A model generated the notes under the pieces. That model searched no databases and had not been told where the DNA came from. It was given only the letters and a program-made list of their open reading frames with translations. A stretch of 63,077 nt of DNA, filler included, from an uncultured Methanosarcinales archaeon (GTDB lineage Archaea; Nanobdellota; Nanobdellia; Woesearchaeales; B54-G15): assembly GCA_964519225.1 (NCBI GenBank). It is 18 parts of 18 records of this genome, joined end to end, with 100 filler letters (N's around TTAATTAATTAA, not from the genome) between each part and the next. Parts side by side here need not be neighbours in the genome. Positions count along the whole stretch, not along the records: positions 48,784 to 51,008 come from CAZFJK010000043.1; 17 more parts are not named here. One strand, 5' to 3'. The translations under genes and the position numbers were made by a program. Positions 2,453 to 52,174 of this stretch are shown piece by piece. Numbering within the stretch: position 1 is the first letter of the stretch; every line of letters begins with the position of its first letter.

Positions 2453-4813
2453 TTAGATTGTTAATTCAGCAAGTTTGCTATACCTCGCTTTTTCAAAATC
2501 CTTTTGGTCAACGCGCAAGAATGTCCATTTTACTCCCGTGCGCTTGCTTACTTCCTCTGCCCAACGCTTGCCCTGTAAATCTTTTGCCGCCACATGAACA
2601 GCTTCTCGTCCTTTTGTCTCAACAACGACCATACCATCTTTTGCGCGAATAATAAAGTCGGGGATATAACGGCGCAAAAATCCATCTTTGGCGATATAAG
2701 GAATTTTGAGGTTAATCGTTCTTGTTTCGTTTTTAATAAAAGCCTCAACATCGTCTGCTCCATCAAGAAATCTCGCAAATTTCGCCTCAAAGTCATTATC
2801 AACCGGCGTAAAGTTCAAAACAGATTTTTGCACCGCCACCGCAAGTTTTATCCACGGAAACGGCTTAATTTCTAATGCCCGCGCTTTCCTCTCCTCCAGT
2901 TTCGCCTCCTCTGATACAATCGTCAGGTTATTGATAGCGTCAACAAAAACGGAAACTATTGCCCCGCGTACTTTGGGATGGTTCAATTTTTTAAGCGTTT
3001 CAAGATTTGCAATATCAACTTTTTTATCAAAAAGATGCTTTGCAATATATTCTTTGACCTGCGGCGCGACTTTGTCAAAGTGGCCCGGTATCCGCGCAAA
3101 CCGCAAAACCGCGTTGGTAATGCTGGCAATATACATCTGCGGATTGTCCGCGTACGGAAACTCCAGCACTTCTTTGGCTTCCTCTTTTTTCGTCAGCATA
3201 TCCACTTTGCGAAGGGTTACATCCCGCGCCTGCAAAGAATCATACTTGAACAACTTTCCGTCCAAAGCGCTTGCCGAAAGCTTTTCAATTCCTTTTACCG
3301 AGTGCGTCAGTCCGCCGGAAAGCATTGGCACTTCTATATCAAATTTTTCTTTGTCTTTCTCAACCTGAATAATTAGCGGCGGGGTGCATGCTTCTTCAAT
3401 GGGGGTAAACTCAATCTTGACTCCCTGCTCTGCTAAGGCTTCTGCAATTAAATCGTGAAATTGCGGGTGTTCAATAACAATAAGTTCCTCTTTGAGTTCC
3501 TGGTCTTCCGGCCACATTCGGCGGAGTCCTCGCCCCAATGTCTGCTCCGGCAAAATTTTGGCTTTTGCGCTATAGGAGCGCAAAGGAACAACAACTACCA
3601 CGTTGCGCACATCCCAGCCCTCGCGAAGCATCAAAACAGAGACAATGGCGTTGTAGGGATTGTCCGGCGAATCAATCTCGCGGGCGGCTTTGCGCGCTAT
3701 CTCCAAATCCTTTTCCGCAATCTGGTCTTTTTTTCTGCCGGAGTGAATGGTCAAAATTTTGCCGCCAAGTTCGGGGAAAGTCGCCAGATACTCTGCCACG
3801 TCATCCGCCGCCTTGTTATCCTCCGTCATCACAAAAAGCACGGGTTTTTTCTCCGTCTTGGTAAGCGCTTTGCGCATCTTCTTCCATTGATTAACTCCAG
3901 CGTCAATTTGAACGCGATATTTTTCCGACGCCTTTTTACTCTCAATTTCGGGCACATTCTCAAGCTCGGCGATCTTGGGCCGCTTGACAATGTTGTCTTC
4001 AATCGCGCTTCCTAAATTGTANNNNNNNNNNNNNNNNNNNNNNNNNNNNNNNNNNNNNNNNNNNNNNNNNNNNNNNNNNNNNNNNNNNNNNNNNNNNNNN
4101 NNNNNNNNNNNNNNNNNNNNNGGCTTTGGCCCTAAAATATCCTGCACTGGATTTTCTTCTTCTCCGTTTTCCCGCTCAACAAATTTCTGCCAGTTCAAAA
4201 GATAAAGAGTTGCCGGCTTGGTGCTTTCCCGTTCCTCATCAGGTCCAATCACATCAAGCTGAAAATCAGAAATCCACTCTGGGGGAAGAAAAGGAAACTT
4301 TTTGAAAATCGCCCCTTCAAAAAATTCGGGATTCTTTGAATCACCCATCAAGCGGTCGAGCACAATCAAGTTTGGCGCTATAAGCAGAAAATCCTTTGTG
4401 AAATCGTCTCGCTTTTCTTTTGTTGTGTTGAAATACGACCATACAATCGCCATCGCCATTACCATTGTTTTACCCGAACCGGTCGCCATTTTGAAAGCAT
4501 ACTTTGCCCATTTGTCTGCACTCGGATCCACCGGCACTCTGGCGTCAAGCTGTTGCGCGAGCTTGTACAAGCTCCGGGCTTCCAAAACTTCATAGCAATA
4601 AATCAAATGCTCAATCGCTTCTCTCTGCGCCCGCCAAAAAGCAAACAAAGTTCCATCTTTCAATTCATGGTTCTCCAAAAACCACCACTCCAAAAGCCGC
4701 CGCGTCGTTTCGCTTGTTCCTTCTTTGTATCCACCCTCGCGCCACGCGGCGACTGCCTGTTGCAGAGCGCGGACGAGAGGAAGTGCCGATTGTTGTTTAT
4801 TATGACCACTCAT
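2453..4813 (-). CDS. res: Type III restriction enzyme Res subunit (SF2 helicase + PD-(D/E)xK nuclease); spans a 100-N gap
   Basis: KMATGSGKT Walker A, MLREGWDV, EQTLGRGLR, C-terminal YIPDF...VVETKG. Confidence 0.9.
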   Translation of the reverse strand: MSGHNKQQSALPLVRALQQAVAAWREGGYKEGTSETTRRLLEWWFLENHELKDGTLFAFWRAQREAIEHLIYCYEVLEARSLYKLAQQLDARVPVDPSADKWAKYAFKMATGSGKTMVMAMAIVWSYFNTTKEKRDDFTKDFLLIAPNLIVLDRLMGDSKNPEFFEGAIFKKFPFLPPEWISDFQLDVIGPDEERESTKPATLYLLNWQKFVERENGEEENPVQDILGPKXXXXXXXXXXXXXXXXXXXXXXXXXXXXXXXXXXYNLGSAIEDNIVKRPKIAELENVPEIESKKASEKYRVQIDAGVNQWKKMRKALTKTEKKPVLFVMTEDNKAADDVAEYLATFPELGGKILTIHSGRKKDQIAEKDLEIARKAAREIDSPDNPYNAIVSVLMLREGWDVRNVVVVVPLRSYSAKAKILPEQTLGRGLRRMWPEDQELKEELIVIEHPQFHDLIAEALAEQGVKIEFTPIEEACTPPLIIQVEKDKEKFDIEVPMLSGGLTHSVKGIEKLSASALDGKLFKYDSLQARDVTLRKVDMLTKKEEAKEVLEFPYADNPQMYIASITNAVLRFARIPGHFDKVAPQVKEYIAKHLFDKKVDIANLETLKKLNHPKVRGAIVSVFVDAINNLTIVSEEAKLEERKARALEIKPFPWIKLAVAVQKSVLNFTPVDNDFEAKFARFLDGADDVEAFIKNETRTINLKIPYIAKDGFLRRYIPDFIIRAKDGMVVVETKGREAVHVAAKDLQGKRWAEEVSKRTGVKWTFLRVDQKDFEKARYSKLAELTI

Positions 4814-40656: not shown

Positions 40657-40744
40657 ATATAACAGAGCGTATCTGGCTTCGTGCCTTCGGCACTTCGCCC
40701 AAATCCTGCTTCGCAGGACTTCAGATACGCTCAAACCGTTAGGC
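40657..40744 (+). other. attC-like recombination site
   Basis: ATATAAC ... GAGCGTATCTG/CAGATACGCTC perfect 11-bp stem, two internal TTCG hairpins ... GTTAGGC. Confidence 0.85.
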
Positions 40745-40775
40745 GACATGGCTATTTAGAAGGAGATGAACGACA

Positions 40776-42137
40776 ATGAATAGGAAGCAAAATCAAAAAC
40801 TAATAAATAATCCACAACAAACATTATTTATGGAACAGACCGCAATTGTGAACATTTATCCACAGGATTCTGTAAGGGAAAAGCTTGAAGCCAAGTTTAA
40901 AAATAAGATGCATGAAGATCTGAGGCTAAGTTCTTCTGTATCTTATGTAGGCAATAAAAAAATTCCTTTCTTAAGGATTTACAGATATAAAGAAGCATTT
41001 GCTTTTAATTTCGTTAAAGACTTTCTTAAGAGATTTGGGGCAGATTCCGATGATTATGTATTTGACCCGTTCTCTGGCTTGGGCACAACTATGTTTACTT
41101 CTATGCTTTCTGGCATCTCATCAATAGGTATCGACAAGTTACCAGTTGCTTATTTCATATCGAAGACTCTTCCCTTATTCTTGTTTTTGAAGGAAAATGA
41201 AATAAAAAAGGTGTGGGAATCTATTAAACCACGCATAAAAACAAGCAAACCTGCAGATGTAGCAATGGATGTTCCTATTATGCAAGTCGCATTTAATGAA
41301 AAAAATCTCATGCTTTTAAGAAAACTAAAATCCACGATTGATAAACTTTCTGAACCTTATAAAGATATTTTCCTTTTGCTCTTCTTTTCAATTCTTGAAG
41401 AATGCAGCTTTACTTCCAAGGATGGTCAGTTTCTAAGGCTCAAACGGAATAAAAAAGTATCCGATCCTATTGAAGCAATGAGTAAGAAGTTGGCACAGGT
41501 AGAAGAGGATATACACCGCATAAAGTTTCTTTATCCCAGCATGTCAATTGATAAAAAAGTTATACCCGACGTCTATCTTGCGGACACACGGGATCTGTCA
41601 AATATAAAATTCAAGCGAAAACCCACAATTATTATTACATCTCCACCTTATGCCAACAGATATGATTATACTAGAACTTACTCTTTAGAGTTGTGTTTTC
41701 ATTTTGTAAAAAATTTTGAAGAACTTAAGGCTATTCGTTTTGGAATTCTGAGATCTCACATAGAGTCAAAAATAAAAAAAGATGAAAAACCACCTCATCC
41801 AGCGGTAGAAGAAGTAATCGATGCTCTTTCAAAAAAGAAATTAAATAATCCTAAAATACCCAATATGATTACTGCTTATTTTGTTGATATGCAGCAAGTC
41901 ATAAAGGAATGGTACAAGGTTTTAGCCCCTGGTGCAAAAGTAGCTATGGTAGTCGATAATGTTAGATTTGAAGGGGAGATGATTCCTGTCGATTTAATTC
42001 TTTCTGAAATGGCTGAAGAAATAGGATTTGAGGTTAAAGAGATTATCACAGCTCGCTATAAAGGAAACAGTTCCCAACAAATGAAAAAATATGGAAAAGT
42101 CCCTGTTAGAGAAAGCATTGTGATATGGGAAAGGTGA
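40776..42137 (+). CDS. Amino (probably N4-cytosine) DNA methyltransferase of a type II R-M system
   Basis: DPFSGLGTT motif I, TSPPY motif IV. Confidence 0.92.
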   Translation: MNRKQNQKLINNPQQTLFMEQTAIVNIYPQDSVREKLEAKFKNKMHEDLRLSSSVSYVGNKKIPFLRIYRYKEAFAFNFVKDFLKRFGADSDDYVFDPFSGLGTTMFTSMLSGISSIGIDKLPVAYFISKTLPLFLFLKENEIKKVWESIKPRIKTSKPADVAMDVPIMQVAFNEKNLMLLRKLKSTIDKLSEPYKDIFLLLFFSILEECSFTSKDGQFLRLKRNKKVSDPIEAMSKKLAQVEEDIHRIKFLYPSMSIDKKVIPDVYLADTRDLSNIKFKRKPTIIITSPPYANRYDYTRTYSLELCFHFVKNFEELKAIRFGILRSHIESKIKKDEKPPHPAVEEVIDALSKKKLNNPKIPNMITAYFVDMQQVIKEWYKVLAPGAKVAMVVDNVRFEGEMIPVDLILSEMAEEIGFEVKEIITARYKGNSSQQMKKYGKVPVRESIVIWER

Positions 42138-43084
42138 TCAAGATGCCATCTGATAAAGAAGAAGAGAGTTGGACGATCGATCAAATCACTAAAAGTGAAT
42201 TTTTCCATCAAAAACTCCATGAATGGGGTCTATTAGAAATTGCTTACGAGCTTGAGGCTATAAAAGGAGAAGAACTTAAATGGGACTTAAAGGAATTGAA
42301 TATAAGTCAAAAAGCTTGGAATAAAATCATTCACAGAGGAATTAAGCCTGTAAGAGTATTTAGCCATCCTGAGGTTTTAAAAGGCAATCCAAAGAGGGTG
42401 AGCTACTATAGAATGCTTGCAATGGTTTCTCAAAAGTCGATGTCAAAAGTTGGCTTGACTGTTAATGGTTATGAAGATGGACGTAAGAGTTTTGATGATA
42501 ACACAGCTTTAGCTGTATCAAAGCATCTAAACAAAATTATAAGCATTCTTATAGAACATGACGAGAAAATAGATGCGAGAGAATTTGATCTGTGGCGTGG
42601 AATGACTGCTGGCTCTCAAGCCCAAGGTTCTTGGCAAAATACAAAAGGTGATCGAGCAGAGGTTGTTATTAAGGAGTTGATTGAAAGAAGAATCAGAGAA
42701 AAAGGGTTGATAATCAAGGAAACCATTCATGGGAAGAGTGAAAAATTTGAATTAAAGGATGGACGAATATTAGTAATGGGTAGTGAGCCTGACATTGGAA
42801 TATATAAAAACGATACAATTCAAATTGCTGTGGAAATAAAAGGGGGTATTGATCCAGCGGGAGTGCTTGAACGATTTGGAGCAGCACTAAAGAGTTTAAG
42901 AAGAGCAAAGCAGGAAAACCCTCAATCAGTTACGATATTGATTATGCAAGGTGTGTCCCTCACTTCCAAAGCTGAAGAAGAAATCAGTAAGAGCAAGGCA
43001 ACCATAGACTACTTCTTTACGATTGAAGATATAATAGGTAATGAGGATTTAAGGAAGCGACTGTTTGAGGTGCTGAATATATGA
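42125..43084 (+). CDS. Type II restriction endonuclease, XcyI-like
   Basis: YYRMLAMVSQK, GSWQN..G, SEPDI...EIKGG.D PD-(D/E)xK motif; coupled to the MTase. Confidence 0.8.
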   Translation: MGKVIKMPSDKEEESWTIDQITKSEFFHQKLHEWGLLEIAYELEAIKGEELKWDLKELNISQKAWNKIIHRGIKPVRVFSHPEVLKGNPKRVSYYRMLAMVSQKSMSKVGLTVNGYEDGRKSFDDNTALAVSKHLNKIISILIEHDEKIDAREFDLWRGMTAGSQAQGSWQNTKGDRAEVVIKELIERRIREKGLIIKETIHGKSEKFELKDGRILVMGSEPDIGIYKNDTIQIAVEIKGGIDPAGVLERFGAALKSLRRAKQENPQSVTILIMQGVSLTSKAEEEISKSKATIDYFFTIEDIIGNEDLRKRLFEVLNI

Positions 43085-43112
43085 TTAGGGAAAATTATAG
43101 TCCAGCCACGTC

Positions 43113-43175
43113 GCCTAACAGCGGACATACGGCTACGGTGCTTCGCACCTCCGCCCAAATTCGGCAGAGCCGAAC
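43113..43175 (+). other. attC-like site (truncated by the contig end)
   Basis: GCCTAAC inverse core complementary to GTTAGGC at 40738; same GGCT.CG-hairpin-CGCCCAAAT-hairpin layout as 40657-40744. Confidence 0.8.
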
Positions 43176-46951: not shown

Positions 46952-47460
46952 ATATTCAATTTCAGAGTTTTTGAGGGTTCTTGCCTTGCCTCGCGGAGTT
47001 TATCCACCAAATTGGCAGGCTCGGACTTGGCAAAAGCAACGATTTTATACGGATTTTTGAAATCCAAAAACAATTTCTGCCCGCTCAAACGGAAGTTCAA
47101 ACCAATCTTTTTTAGAAAATCCCGACTCAGTTCGGGATTTTCTCGTAAAGCGAGAATTTTGCTTTGTTTAAGGGAGTTTTTCTTTTGGTGCAATGCAAGT
47201 AATTATGTCCCTTCCGGGTCTCGGTGGTAATAAAGCAACCGCATTCTCCGCAACGGAACATTCCTCTGTAGATGTATGGCTTTAATTCTCTTGTCTTCGG
47301 CTTGCTTTTTCGCCTCATCGCTTCCTGAACTTGATCAAAAAGTTTCTTTGCAACAATCGGTTCGTGCTTTCCTTCGTAGCATTCGCCGTTGTATCTCATC
47401 ACTCCGCAGTAAAAAGGATTTTGGAGAAGGTATTGGTAATTTGAAACAAAAAGCGATTTT
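46952..47460 (-). pseudogene. Large serine recombinase remnant (recombinase + Zn-ribbon + C-terminal pieces) abutting tRNA-Ser
   Basis: LQNPFYCG...GKHEPIV..LFDQVQ...RCGECG...YLHCT; catalytic N-terminus and coiled coil missing; frame change. Confidence 0.8.
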
Positions 47461-48010
47461 CCTTTTCTTTCTTTCAATCCTATTGCGATTTCGCAAAAAG
47501 CACAATTTGGCGGTGCTTTCTGGACGATGTTTAAACTTTCTTTGAACAAAATCCGCAAGCGGATTTTGGATAATCCCGCCTAACGGTTCGCTTCGCCAAA
47601 AGGCGGAGTAGGCAAAGCCCGCCCCATAGCAATCTTTCGCTTCGCTCAAGATGCTACGGGGTAAACAAAAATTTTTGCTTGCCTCATAGTCAAATGCGAA
47701 GCATTTGTACTTCGGGGCGGGCTTTGCTTCCTTGCTGATCCCAGTAGCAGAGCAAAGCTCACTATGGGGCACGGCGCAAAGAGAGCCGTTTCCCATCCCA
47801 AGCCGCGCTCCGCGCGGCAGGGCAGGCGGGCTATTTCTTTTGATTTAAGGTAAATATGCTTGCCTCACCCAGCCCGTGTGCGGGCAACATTAGGAAACTT
47901 CCTATATTCTTGTTGACCAGAAAAAATAAATAATGTATTATGTTTGTAGTGGTATTCAGTGGATTATAGAAAACAACCTATATTTTAATACTAATATTAT
48001 TATACAAAAT

Positions 48011-48785: not shown

Positions 48786-49814
48786 AAAATCGAAAAAGAT
48801 AATGGGAGAATTAAAGTTTTCTTTCCATACAGTCCAGTATATATTACAAAAATAAAAACTATCAGAGGATATAAGTGGCATTCTGATGGAAAATACTGGA
48901 GCATTCCGTATTCTGAACTTGAAAATCTTCTGTCAGCATTTGATAGAAAAAAGATTGAGGTAGATGCATCTGTCTGGCTTTATGATCTGAGAAAAGAACT
49001 GATGGCAAGAAAGTACAGCAGGAGAACTATAAAGCTTTATCTGCATTACAATGAAGGATTCCTGAAATTCAGCAATAAAACACCTTATCAGGTATCAAAT
49101 GAAGATGTTAGGGATTATCTGTATCATCTGGCAGAAAGGAAGAATGCTTCGGCATCAACTTTAAATATAGCAATAAATGCACTGAAGTTTTACTATGGTG
49201 AGGTTCTAAAGCGAAGATTTGCTTATGGGATAAGGAGACCAAAGAAAGACAAAAAGCTGCCGATTGTTTTGAGTTAGGAGGAAGTTTCAAGGATTTTATC
49301 TTCGTTTAACAACATTAAGCACAGGCTGATTCTGATGCTCATGTATTCTGCCGGTTTGAGAGTTGGAGAAGTTGTAAAGCTTAAAATCGAAGACATTGAT
49401 GTGAAGAGAAAATTGATCAGAATAAGGAGTGGAAAAGGTAGGAAGGATCGATATACAATCTTTTCTGAGATTATGTTAAAAACATTTAGAGAATATGTTG
49501 AGAAGTACAAGCCAGAAAAGTGGCTGTTTCCGGGACAGAGAAAGGATAGACATATAACAACAAGGACTGTGCAGAAGATATTTGATAATGCATGTAGAAA
49601 AGCAGGGATAAGGAAAGAGGCTACCGTTCATTCCTTGAGGCATTTATTCGCAACTCATTTACTCGAAAGTGGAGTTGATCTGAGATACATTCAGGAGTTG
49701 CTTGGTCACAAAAGTTCAAAAACAACAGAGATTTATACTCACGTTGCAATGAAAGATTTGAGAAAAATAAGAAGTCCAATAGATATGATGGTTAAAGGTG
49801 AAAAAGATGAATGA
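48786..49814 (+). pseudogene. Integron-like tyrosine recombinase (HARP-like + SAM-like + catalytic domains) with one in-frame TAG at 49275-49277; 5' partial
   Basis: Continuous frame: FPYSP..IKTIRGYKW..KYWSIP, RKYSRRTIKLY, KLPIVLS*EEV, YSAGLRVGE, GKGRKDR, HSLRH, LGH, IYTHV. Confidence 0.9.
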
Positions 49815-49927
49815 GTTCGTATATACTGCCAAAATTAAAGATAGCATGAACTTCGTATATCCTTCCAAAACCGAACAAAAAGCGAACTTCGTATATGAAC
49901 GAGTTAGCAGAAATTCTGCACGCCACT
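49813..49927 (+). other. attI-like primary recombination site downstream of the integrase
   Basis: TTCGTATAT at 49816, 49852 and 49888 (36-bp period), then GTTAGCA core at 49903. Confidence 0.7.
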
Positions 49928-49977
49928 TTAGGAATATTTAAAATCTGGGAAGAAGTTAAAACAGAGAGGTGAAGAGC

Positions 49978-50778
49978 ATGGAAATAAAAATCATCAAGAT
50001 AAAAGCTAAAAAAGCTTTCACAAAAACAAAAATTCCTGGAGCAGATTGGGTTATCAACCAGTACGTTGGTTGCCAACATGGATGTAAGTATTGCTATGCC
50101 AAATTCATGTGTAAATGGTATAACTATGGAGAATGGGGAAGTTGGATTGTTGTTAAAGAAAACCTCCCAGAACTTGTTAAAAAAGAAAATGTTAAAGGAG
50201 AAGTTTATATGAGTAGCGTTAGCGATCCGTATCAACCGATTGAGGAAAAATTAGAGCTTACGAGAAATGTTTTGAAAAACATGAATAGAAACATCAAATT
50301 AGGAATCCTAACAAAGTCTGATTCAGTTTTAAGAGATATAGACATTTTTAAAGAGTTTAAAGATATAGAAATAGGTTTAACGATTAACGGTTTTGATGGA
50401 TTTGTGAAAAAGAAGATAGAGCCCTTTTCTCCAAGTAATGAGAAAAGAATAGAAGCACTAAAATCGCTTCATGAGCATGGTATTAAAAACTACGCATTTA
50501 TTTCACCAATAATTCCAAATCTGATCGATGTTGAGGAGTTAATCAGAGAAACAAAAAGTTTCACAGATTTTTACTGGTTTGAGTTTTTGAATTTAAGAGC
50601 AAGTGGAAAAGAGTTTAGAGAATGGTTAAAGCAAAACTATCCTGAAAGCTATGAAATAGTTTCTGATAAAGTTAAAGCGGAAAAGTATGCGAAAGATGTT
50701 ATGAAAATTATAAAAGATAATAACATACAAGTTAGAGGTGTTTGTATGCATTATCCAAAAATTATGGCGGTGAAATAA
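49978..50778 (+). CDS. SPL-like radical SAM protein (cassette gene)
   Basis: NQYVGCQHGCKYCYA, SSVSDPYQPIE, ILTKS; GAGGTGA RBS. Confidence 0.9.
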   Translation: MEIKIIKIKAKKAFTKTKIPGADWVINQYVGCQHGCKYCYAKFMCKWYNYGEWGSWIVVKENLPELVKKENVKGEVYMSSVSDPYQPIEEKLELTRNVLKNMNRNIKLGILTKSDSVLRDIDIFKEFKDIEIGLTINGFDGFVKKKIEPFSPSNEKRIEALKSLHEHGIKNYAFISPIIPNLIDVEELIRETKSFTDFYWFEFLNLRASGKEFREWLKQNYPESYEIVSDKVKAEKYAKDVMKIIKDNNIQVRGVCMHYPKIMAVK

Positions 50779-50859
50779 AATGAAAAAATCTGATTTAACT
50801 AAAACTTTCAGTGGCGTGCGGAACTCTTCGCCTGCTTTCGCAGGCTCGCCATTCGGGTC

Positions 50860-50947
50860 TGCTAACAAGCGGGTATCAGGCTTTGTTTTATCTGCCCAAA
50901 TTCCTCGCTATGCTCGGAACTTCGGATACCCTCAAAAAAATCATAAC
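50860..50947 (+). other. attC-like site with degenerate core
   Basis: TGCTAAC, GGGTATC/GATACCC stem, GCCCAAATTCC..GGAACTTC, ends ATCATAAC in place of GTTATAA; a next ORF starts at 50967. Confidence 0.7.
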
Positions 50948-51108
50948 TCATGAGAAGGTGAATAAAATGGAAGAATTCTATGAGTTTATACTCGAAGGCT
51001 TGGACTTANNNNNNNNNNNNNNNNNNNNNNNNNNNNNNNNNNNNNNNNNNNNTTAATTAATTAANNNNNNNNNNNNNNNNNNNNNNNNNNNNNNNNNNNN
51101 NNNNNNNN

Positions 51109-52079: not shown

Positions 52080-52174
52080 GTATAACGTTCTGCGGATAAA
52101 AGAAGTTACCCAAGGCAATTTGGGTCAAAGCGAGCAAAAAGCGAAGTTTTGCCTCATAACCGGCCTTGGTAAGC
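52080..52174 (-). other. Degenerate attC-like site
   Basis: Minus strand: GCTTACC ... GACCCAAATTGCC..GGTAACTTCTTTTATCCGCAGAAC-GTTATAC, immediately after the stop of the upstream gene. Confidence 0.6.

Follow-up and report, generated by a model that had tools for sequence, protein, structure and literature searches.

Integrons are defined, and searched for, by an insertion in the integrase IntI that is held to be necessary for recombining folded attC sites. Here we describe a gene-cassette locus whose recombinase does not have that insertion. It lies in a 63,077-nucleotide stretch of DNA (hereafter the window) that joins pieces, contigs C31–C49, of one metagenome-assembled genome (MAG) deposited as an uncultured Methanosarcinales archaeon (GCA_964519225.1) and that contains 36 runs of N, mostly as N44-TTAATTAATTAA-N44 linkers. 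Positions 48786–51008 are the entire contig C43 (2225 bp, truncated at both ends), which carries on its plus strand a tyrosine recombinase gene, a repeat-containing site at the 3' end of that gene, a radical SAM gene with an attC-like hairpin, and the start of another open reading frame (ORF). C43 probably represents the proximal end of a platform for gene cassettes that resembles an integron and is headed by a member of a recombinase family that we term HX ("HARP-Xer").

In passages of Ghaly et al. 2022 (PMC9668308), 75 archaeal genomes are reported to contain 539 attCs and six IntIs, most arrays lacking an integrase; putative attIs are placed directly downstream of intI, and the IntIs are stated to carry the additional domain. 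In the same passages, IntI1 recombined eight of nine archaeal attCs, which are of the classical type. Like integrons, including the archaeal ones and the "reverse-orientation" integrons of Spirochaetota, the HX loci combine a recombinase gene, an adjacent insertion site and a one-directional, promoter-poor cassette array. They share with integrons an imperfect hairpin for each cassette, with R'' (RYYYAAC) and R' (GTTRRRY) boxes, L''/L' stems and a probable crossover at G|TT, as well as cassettes whose first six bases complement their own R'' and a cargo rich in defence and toxin-antitoxin genes. The position of the HX site directly behind the recombinase gene is that described in passages on attI in archaeal integrons (PMC9668308). 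The HX system departs from integrons in its recombinase, which is without the IntI insertion and carries a HARP-like domain at the N-terminus, and in its attI, which has two palindromes and not direct repeats. In addition, judged by eye, the spacer after TAAC is 1–2 nt in the hairpin sites found with our model R1 (below) and 5–6 nt in the nine published archaeal attCs that we compared (PMC9668308). The R1 sites also conserve a CAAA(T) block and a CTTC block, and no CCCAAAT block occurs in the Ghaly et al. supplement (PMC9668308).

Another described system, rAID-1 of Bacteroidales (Ross et al. 2019, bioRxiv 10.1101/471110), has, according to passages of the preprint, a 5' XerD-like recombinase with a conserved motif 3' of its stop codon, followed by co-directional genes and by repetitive intergenic sequences termed reminiscent of integrons. 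Its criteria were a recombinase with more than 44% identity to a B. fragilis protein, at least two co-directional downstream genes, and low GC content. By this description rAID-1 has the same architecture as the HX loci. It differs in being found in Bacteroidales only and in its immunity-gene cargo, and the passages give no site structure, crossover, N-terminal domain or relation to IntI (10.1101/471110). Three Bacteroidota members of the HX family carry three tandem HARP-like modules at the N-terminus instead of one (loci L045, L046 and L064; 528–558 aa). With rAID-1 set aside, open-access papers and bioRxiv yielded no description of an HX-type system, which subscription papers may contain, and no paper in which attC-type sites are tied to recombinases that are XerA-like or bear a HARP domain.

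In the mechanism that we propose, the HX recombinase, with its Xer-like core, HARP-like N-terminal domain and no IntI insertion, would bind a double-stranded attI-like site behind its own stop codon, and this site would be recombined, at G|TT of its GTTRRRY core, with the folded attC-like hairpin of a circular cassette. As a result, cassettes would stack downstream in the orientation of the recombinase gene. Each cassette would start with TTNNNN and end in its own hairpin site, the R'' box of which would complement those six bases. The HX protein itself would catalyze the exchange, presumably on an attC folded as single-stranded DNA. The C43 copy is probably frozen, because the recombinase gene has a nonsense codon and the attC of the first cassette has no 3' box; intact recombinase alleles are present in other samples. 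Comparison among related loci supports a real system, of which C43 would be a small and partly decayed example.

The recombinase and its adjacent insertion site

The recombinase gene (48786–49817, plus strand) translates to 342 residues, arranged as a HARP-like N-terminal domain (residues 1–52), a SAM-like core-binding domain (PF13495, 71 bits) and a catalytic domain (PF00589, 158 bits). The full catalytic set that the original prediction reported is present, with R192, K217, H282, R285, H308 and Y317 invariant or nearly so in our alignment A1. The predicted absence of the IntI insertion was likewise borne out. The chain continues directly through YKPEKWLFPGQRKDRHITTRTVQ, and its alignment with VchIntIA (2a3v) splits so that 59 residues of that chain (180–238) stand opposite 17 residues of the query (237–253). 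The integron integrase model TIGR02249 matches in two pieces with positions 181–230 skipped, a gap that recurs in the whole-genome search. As anticipated, the protein does not score as an integron integrase (235 against a cut-off of 265), and it passes the XerA model NF040815 (252.4 bits against 220), which NCBI's own naming calls "site-specific tyrosine recombinase/integron integrase". It thus has the fold and the R-K-H-R-H-Y residues of IntI, lacks the additional domain (~35–40 aa near patch III), and falls outside the IntI clade in the tree described below.

Residues 1–52 adopt a confident predicted fold (predicted local distance difference test 87–93) with the order strand-strand-helix-strand-strand-helix. 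In Foldseek, this domain matches the substrate-recognition (HARP) domain of SMARCAL1 best (E = 0.036, probability 0.99, TM 0.55), and no match reaches E ≤ 0.001. VIA-align returns T4 UvsW, the N-terminal domains of archaeal XPB and the SMARCAL1 HARP domain at Z scores of 4.6–5.2, and CASTOR2 higher at 5.7, all of them under 6 and so below the level of a safe fold match. Among sequence models, the Pfam HARP family (PF07443) matches one relative, P0044, at 27 bits against a gathering threshold of 25, and reaches E ≤ 0.01 in 15 of 46 family members. A profile of the N-terminal domain matches 31 of 31 HX family members and none of the 36 IntI, XerA, XerC and XerD proteins in our set, where the domain is also absent from all 14 IntIs. 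We treat the HARP identity as a lead only. HARP domains bind fork-like DNA, and the domain may recognize the folded hairpin or the palindromic parts of the 3' site and so stand in for the IntI insertion.

The attI-like site (49812–49915, plus strand) contains three GAACTTCGTATA-type repeats, starting at 49812, 49848 and 49884 (49812–49834, 49848–49870 and 49884–49895), a CCAAAA block, and the sequence GAACGA-G|TTAGCA-GAAATT. Its GTTAGCA (49903–49909) corresponds to the GTTRRRY core and lies 86 nt past the stop codon, and the repeat-containing site of the original prediction has the layout of an insertion site beside the recombinase gene; the crossover would fall between G49903 and T49904. For comparison we used a locus set with one genome per species, in which 586 of 603 pattern matches encode a relative of the recombinase, and kept the best 80 loci. 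In homologues, the 3' site consists of two palindromes, ATATCCGAA-n-TTCGGATAT, flanking a CCCAAAT block and followed by GAACGA-GTTRRRY-GAAATT. A profile built from 10 homologous loci and C43 matches the plus strand of 27 of the 80 loci at E ≤ 0.01 (10 of them seeds), and all matches except that in L021 begin in the interval from 26 nt ahead of the stop codon's end to 75 nt past it.

Hairpin sites, cassettes and their junctions

Cassette 1 of C43 (49904–50866, plus strand) opens with TTAGCA, the first bases of a left end that also includes a 14-nt clamp (49914–49927); on the right it has a second clamp (50810–50823) and an R'' box (50860–50866). This box begins the attC-like site (50860–50937, plus strand), which has R'' TGCTAAC at 50860–50866, L'' at 50870–50878, CCCAAAT at 50895–50901 and L' at 50924–50931, with 50870–50878 paired to 50924–50931. 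Of the TGCTAAC-initiated hairpin that had been predicted here, R'' and the stem hold (24 bits, E = 0.0017, model positions 12–84 only, with R1, our covariance model of the attC-like site), and the 3' GTT box is absent. The best site in the MAG is complete and lies on contig C40 (40654–40747, plus strand; R1 88 bits), where its R', GTTAGGC (40738–40744), opens the next cassette. This restriction-modification cassette (40739–43175, plus strand) starts with TTAGGC, encodes a DNA methylase (40776–42134) and an XcyI-like endonuclease (42125–43081), and reaches R'' GCCTAAC at 43113–43119 before its attC is cut by the contig end. These are the related sites that had been noted at 40657 and 43113, and both are real family members (the first at 88 bits, the second truncated). 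The claimed recurrence within the window stands to that extent, with the qualification that the C40 sites are on another contig of the bin and not on the same stretch of DNA.

The C40 and C43 sites align with sites downstream of homologues. The consensus of ten sites folds into an outer (R) stem of 9 bp with TAAC/GTTA in it, an internal loop that is asymmetric (2 nt versus 5 nt), and an inner (L) stem of 12 bp, with compensatory changes in 15 of 21 pairs. Across 31 aligned sites, 89% of cells are paired, compared with 67% in column shuffles (none of 500 as high) and 29–38% with the partner slid; pairing reaches 96% in the L stem, where both sides have changed in 10 of 12 pairs. The structure of the hairpin sites is selected. 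Positions of the outer R stem are frequently unpaired in the 31 sites, which is expected if the 3' half of the R box belongs to the next cassette. The ~80 nt between the two halves of the R box allow them to come together only by forming a hairpin or cruciform, and by analogy with integrons this suggests a folded substrate.

We searched R1 against both strands of the 80 loci (653 kb). At E ≤ 0.1 there are 35 matches, 34 on the recombinase strand and 33 downstream of the recombinase gene, the exceptions being in L037 and one in L011. Outside the training sites, 23 of 25 matches are downstream against an expected 16.5% (binomial p = 2e-16; the loci are not all independent). In these homologous arrays, one to three ORFs lie between sites on the recombinase strand, each site falls 10–50 nt past the last stop codon, and gene orientation often flips beyond the last site of an array. 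Co-oriented arrays are thus a property of the family, with one cassette each on C43 and C40 in the window. The cargo varies by locus and includes methylase-endonuclease pairs, AAA_13, AbiJ, KAP NTPase, SIR2-like, ParE (twice), DUF4258/MqsA-like and UDG genes, among others. There is no shared synteny among the downstream arrays of homologues from many phyla, so that variable, non-syntenic genes separated by one site family do follow homologues of the recombinase, as the original prediction had suggested should be checked. Tyrosine recombinases beside variable restriction-modification genes often act by phase variation, and a shufflon-type recombinase could invert segments between sites to switch expression. 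The direct orientation of 34 of the 35 sites on the recombinase strand argues against this, as does a cargo that is unrelated between units and therefore offers no alternative gene halves to swap, and we regard such a switch as extremely improbable.

The ends of the cassettes follow a rule. Among 28 cassettes with both ends known, the first six bases perfectly complement the cassette's own R'' in 18; perfect complementarity of R'' to the R' inside the same site occurs in only five (19 higher, 6 equal, 3 lower; Wilcoxon p = 0.001). Both cassettes of the MAG obey it (TTAGCA...TGCTAA on C43 and TTAGGC...GCCTAA on C40). In L027, T rather than G precedes TT while the hexamer still matches, a pattern that places the exchange point between that base and TT.

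Comparison of C43 with its counterpart in a Methanoperedenaceae genome (L013) shows 90.2% DNA identity over 265 columns, from the 3' end of the recombinase gene to the G of GTT, and a fall to 37.4% from 13 nt past that G. On this alignment the two loci are the same platform with different first cassettes. Parts of C43 are present in 20 sequencing runs from 11 studies, from hydrothermal vents and marine sediments, and we compared C43 with contigs of four runs from four studies, all of mixed communities. Metagenome unitigs break at 49903–49906, and other contigs join hairpin-type endings (...AAAAC) to GTTAGCA. Contigs from runs X5, X6 and X7 span the junction between attI and cassette, so the arrangement exists in several samples, and other contigs run on after 50928 with AAAACGTTAG, the canonical 3' box that is absent from C43. 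The contigs show alternative joinings at G|TT, not recombination events. Skips of 78–497 nt were considered as excision events and not accepted, all of the joints being taken from contigs and having sides of at most 32 nt. In the vent and sediment metagenomes, 49903–49943 and 50810–50958 are repeat modules at 10–100 times the depth of the genes between them, which makes the cassette-end modules part of a repeat family that is very abundant there.

These junctions bear on a more conventional explanation, in which an ordinary integrative or transposable element (a genomic island, an IS91-type element or a provirus) encodes the recombinase as its integrase, GTTRRRY is the att or end site of that element, and the genes downstream are a defence island. 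Integrases usually adjoin their att site and contigs often break at element ends; here, the contig ends 60–280 bp past the stop codon in 24 of the 80 loci, and L005 and L026 terminate at GAGTTA(G). Shorter relatives without the N-terminal domain (47% identity) adjoin IS91-family transposases on Clostridium plasmids, and cross-domain identities of 60–80% show that the gene is mobile. A single att site leaves unexplained, however, the repeated co-oriented hairpins after each gene or gene pair, the complementarity of a unit's first six bases to its own downstream site, and the collapse of identity exactly at G|TT between two copies of the platform. Transposase and phage genes are also absent beside the HX genes in annotated arrays. 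We therefore consider an ordinary element unlikely and continue with the cassette platform as the preferred reading.

Two genome-wide scans for further hairpin sites were made. Besides rRNA and tRNA and two coding matches, the MAG-wide scan for TAAC...GTTA hairpins returned the C40 site alone. An exact scan for GCCCAAAT, a probe that is too narrow, gave 16 occurrences, three of them in site context. A decayed site on contig C27 (L144, G000:C27:3223-3317; 24.5 bits) combines a degenerate 5' box with a good 3' half (GAACGTTAGGC), and it sits between co-oriented genes of a defence or restriction island (Mrr-like, an Eco57I/type I-like methylase, and a specificity subunit).

Relationship of HX to IntI and XerA

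A word-based protein search gave at least 7,997 relatives at E ≤ 1e-10 among the best 8,000 candidates. Close relatives among the matches listed come from Thermodesulforhabdus (74% identity), Thermoplasmatota, Methanotrichaceae and Dehalococcoidia. The loci come from both Bacteria and Archaea, with the Bacteroidota members at 40–50% identity, and identities of 60–80% across the two domains indicate that the recombinase gene itself is mobile. On plasmids of Clostridium estertheticum and C. tagluense (records H3-H10), IS91-family transposase genes adjoin the shorter relatives (47% identity from residue 70 on; no N-terminal domain), and Chryseobacterium plasmids carry full-length relatives at 40% identity.

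To place the family, we built a tree with the 14 IntIs over cut-off from Nitrospirota (a phylum in which 39 of 201 genomes have IntI), XerC and XerD of five genomes as outgroup, and 12 XerA-like genes from the same order as the MAG (293 columns, IQ-TREE, LG+C20; the IntI insertion and the N-terminal domain were excluded by a 60% fill rule). HX forms its own clade (support 97/96), IntI another (100/100), and the two group together (100/96) with XerA excluded. Within this limited sampling, the tree places HX as the sister clade of IntI and not inside it, which answers the call for an IntI/Xer tree in favor of a separate lineage.

The MAG contains three Xer-like loci: C43, a 283-aa XerA-like gene on contig C12, and a frameshifted fragment on C44 (51151–51690, plus strand) that has 50% identity to the C43 recombinase over residues 157–310. 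The match of the fragment stops short of the N-terminal domain, and there is no site downstream of it. With XerA, the C43 protein shares the catalytic residues, the absence of the IntI insertion and a passing NF040815 score, and its best solved sequence relative is XerA (PDB 5hxy, 4a8e; E = 2.7e-47). It differs in its extra N-terminal domain, in forming a separate clade from the XerA of the same order, and in grouping with IntI; the HX family is also patchy and cross-domain in its distribution and is associated with arrays of cassettes, not with one dif site. The XerA score (252 vs 220) and the solved relative would suit a scheme resembling the Xer-exploiting IMEX, in which cassettes insert at a dif-like site via the housekeeping XerA and HX is a dimer-resolution paralogue. 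The gene that groups with the same-order XerA genes, and so with the lineage's housekeeping enzyme, is instead the one on C12, unlike the C43 protein. R1 sites are absent from 13 loci (46 kb) comprising this C12 locus, C44 and the XerA-like loci of 11 relatives with 1.5-kb flanks. The 3' site co-varies with the HX gene. In contrast to a dif site of 28 bp, the R box has halves ~80 nt apart that only a hairpin can bring together. We judge the Xer-exploiting scheme to be quite unlikely.

One could also suppose that the cassettes are classical integron cassettes served in trans by an IntI encoded elsewhere, with the HX gene a bystander. The R''/R' consensus and the G|TT point are identical to those of integrons, and IntI1 recombined eight of nine archaeal attCs of the classical type in the passages cited above (PMC9668308). 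In a Nitrospirota genome (G063), a true IntI (412 bits) coexists with two HX platforms. Yet a whole-genome model search found no IntI in this 97%-complete MAG, and a conserved site directly follows the HX stop codon. The R1 sites are built unlike the nine published archaeal attCs (spacers of 1–2 versus 5–6 nt, and the CCCAAAT block), as far as the available parts of that source show (PMC9668308). Finally, R1 finds nothing in the 118 kb that surround 10 true IntI genes, despite attC candidates there in a crude hairpin scan, and likewise nothing in a set of 14 true-IntI loci. Service by an IntI in trans is, on balance, very unlikely. The G063 genome, with its IntI on contig C64 and its platforms at L008 and L010, is a natural test case for cross-talk.

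The family arrays, the conservation of the sites and the tree support the central inference of the original prediction, that of a distinct cassette-capture system not based on IntI. More tentatively, and with rather more doubt than confidence, we suggest that integrons comprise two ancient sister lineages, one in which the IntI insertion reads classical attC and one, HX, that reads its own hairpins via the HARP-like domain. HX might then take the place of IntI as the principal cassette platform in Archaea, Bacillota, Bacteroidota and several uncultured phyla, move defence cassettes between domains, and explain part of the "integrase-less" archaeal arrays. If a sister family without the IntI insertion has the full anatomy of an integron, that insertion would not be the sole route to recombination of hairpin sites, and the HARP-like domain would be a testable alternative module. 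Current tools would miss a large share of cassette platforms, including those of Archaea and of phyla thought to be poor in integrons, and defence genes would have, in these platforms, a concrete vehicle for passing between the domains (90% DNA identity to Methanoperedenaceae and 74% protein identity to Thermodesulforhabdus). With one protein and two short sites, the system is small enough for standard attC x attI assays.

The condition of the locus, its host and its surroundings

Several observations weigh against reading C43 as a cassette platform. The locus itself is poor, with a single cassette, a recombinase gene that has lost its first two codons at the contig edge and has a single in-frame TAG in the source sample (49275–49277, codon 164), and an attC that ends in CTCAAAAAAATCATAAC with no 3' GTT box. 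The closest protein among the matches listed, P0001 (344 aa, 98% identical), shows that just two N-terminal residues are missing and carries Gln where C43 has TAG. Contigs from public metagenomes have C at position 49275 (CAG, Gln) in runs X5 and X6 and T in X1, so that TAG is a real allele of one population and not a trait of the family. R1 matches number only three in the whole MAG (C40, C27 and C43), one of them weak. More generally, the arrays are short (1–4 sites in 6-kb flanks), and 10 of the 28 cassettes lack perfect end complementarity, some of which may be accounted for by missed sites. The HARP assignment is weak for the C43 protein, given its Z scores and the absence of a PF07443 match in its own N-terminal domain. 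The IntIs of the tree come from one phylum and the XerA proteins from one order only. No recombination product, neither a circle nor an excision joint, was seen directly, the contig joints being short-sided. The contig may, moreover, be mis-binned, as the same-order relatives have no homologue with the N-terminal domain and the DNA of the recombinase 3' end and attI-like site is 90% identical to that of a Methanoperedenaceae genome.

The whole assembly comprises 868,879 bp in 53 contigs (GC content ~36%) and is rated 97% complete with 1.6% contamination. The window encodes archaeal markers, namely a histone fold, ribosomal proteins S6e and L15e, PTH2 and RtcB. The archaeal host put forward by the original prediction is therefore plausible for the bin and not secure for the 2.2-kb contig C43. 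A Xer-like match is present in 44 of 61 same-order genomes, every one at 51% identity or less and none spanning residues 1–37, and a homologue with the N-terminal domain is found in 0 of 60 such genomes. Because of this absence, the C43 platform may be either horizontally acquired or on a mis-binned contig. At k = 55, several pairs of contig ends overlap, none of them involving C40, C43 or C44, so the array cannot be extended. No run recorded as RNA contains the C43 stretch.

Within cassette 1, the radical SAM gene (49978–50778, plus strand, with an alternative GTG start at 49969) was predicted correctly (PF04055, 64 bits against 29.5) and is preceded by the ribosome-binding site GAGGTGA (49966–49972). 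It is of the PA0069 / mobile-pair-B kind at scores below curated cut-offs (TIGR04470, 160 against 410; NF033668, 138 against 360). The two clamps form an inverted repeat (I13) that brackets this gene, 49914–49927 with 50810–50823 (14 nt, 93% complementary). In the left module region (49903–49943), a TATA-like TTTAAAA stands ~30 nt ahead of the ribosome-binding site. The further ORF start was also predicted correctly: the first 14 codons (50967–51008, plus strand) follow the ribosome-binding site AAGGTGA (50955–50961), are cut by the contig end, and are probably those of the next cassette.

Elsewhere in the window, two side claims of the original prediction did not hold, which leaves it partly confirmed, its core observation being real. 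The region 788–2097, said to repeat the layout of C43, is a GH113-like minus-strand ORF in which tblastn finds no recombinase and the site model no match; the related site claimed at 52080 is noise (R1 E = 9.3 with filters off). On contig C31, a 187-bp GC-rich palindromic intergenic block (2238–2424) adjoins a ResIII-type helicase/restriction gene (2453–4813, minus strand) and is not matched by R1 (best E about 5). Contig C42 (46864–48683) looks like the remnant of a tRNA-integrated element: a tRNA-Ser gene is followed by a minus-strand ORF (47127–47558) that resembles, by eye and with no Pfam match, the zinc-ribbon C-terminal part of a large serine recombinase, then by a GC-rich palindromic stretch (47560–47900), a helix-turn-helix gene and a DNA methylase. 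Lastly, many same-order relatives have a second short XerA-like gene (e.g. G022:C37:206-994, G034:C23:147-923 and G051:C12:183-989). These genes start 150–700 bp from the contig start and read inward, an arrangement that resembles a recombinase heading a variable region.

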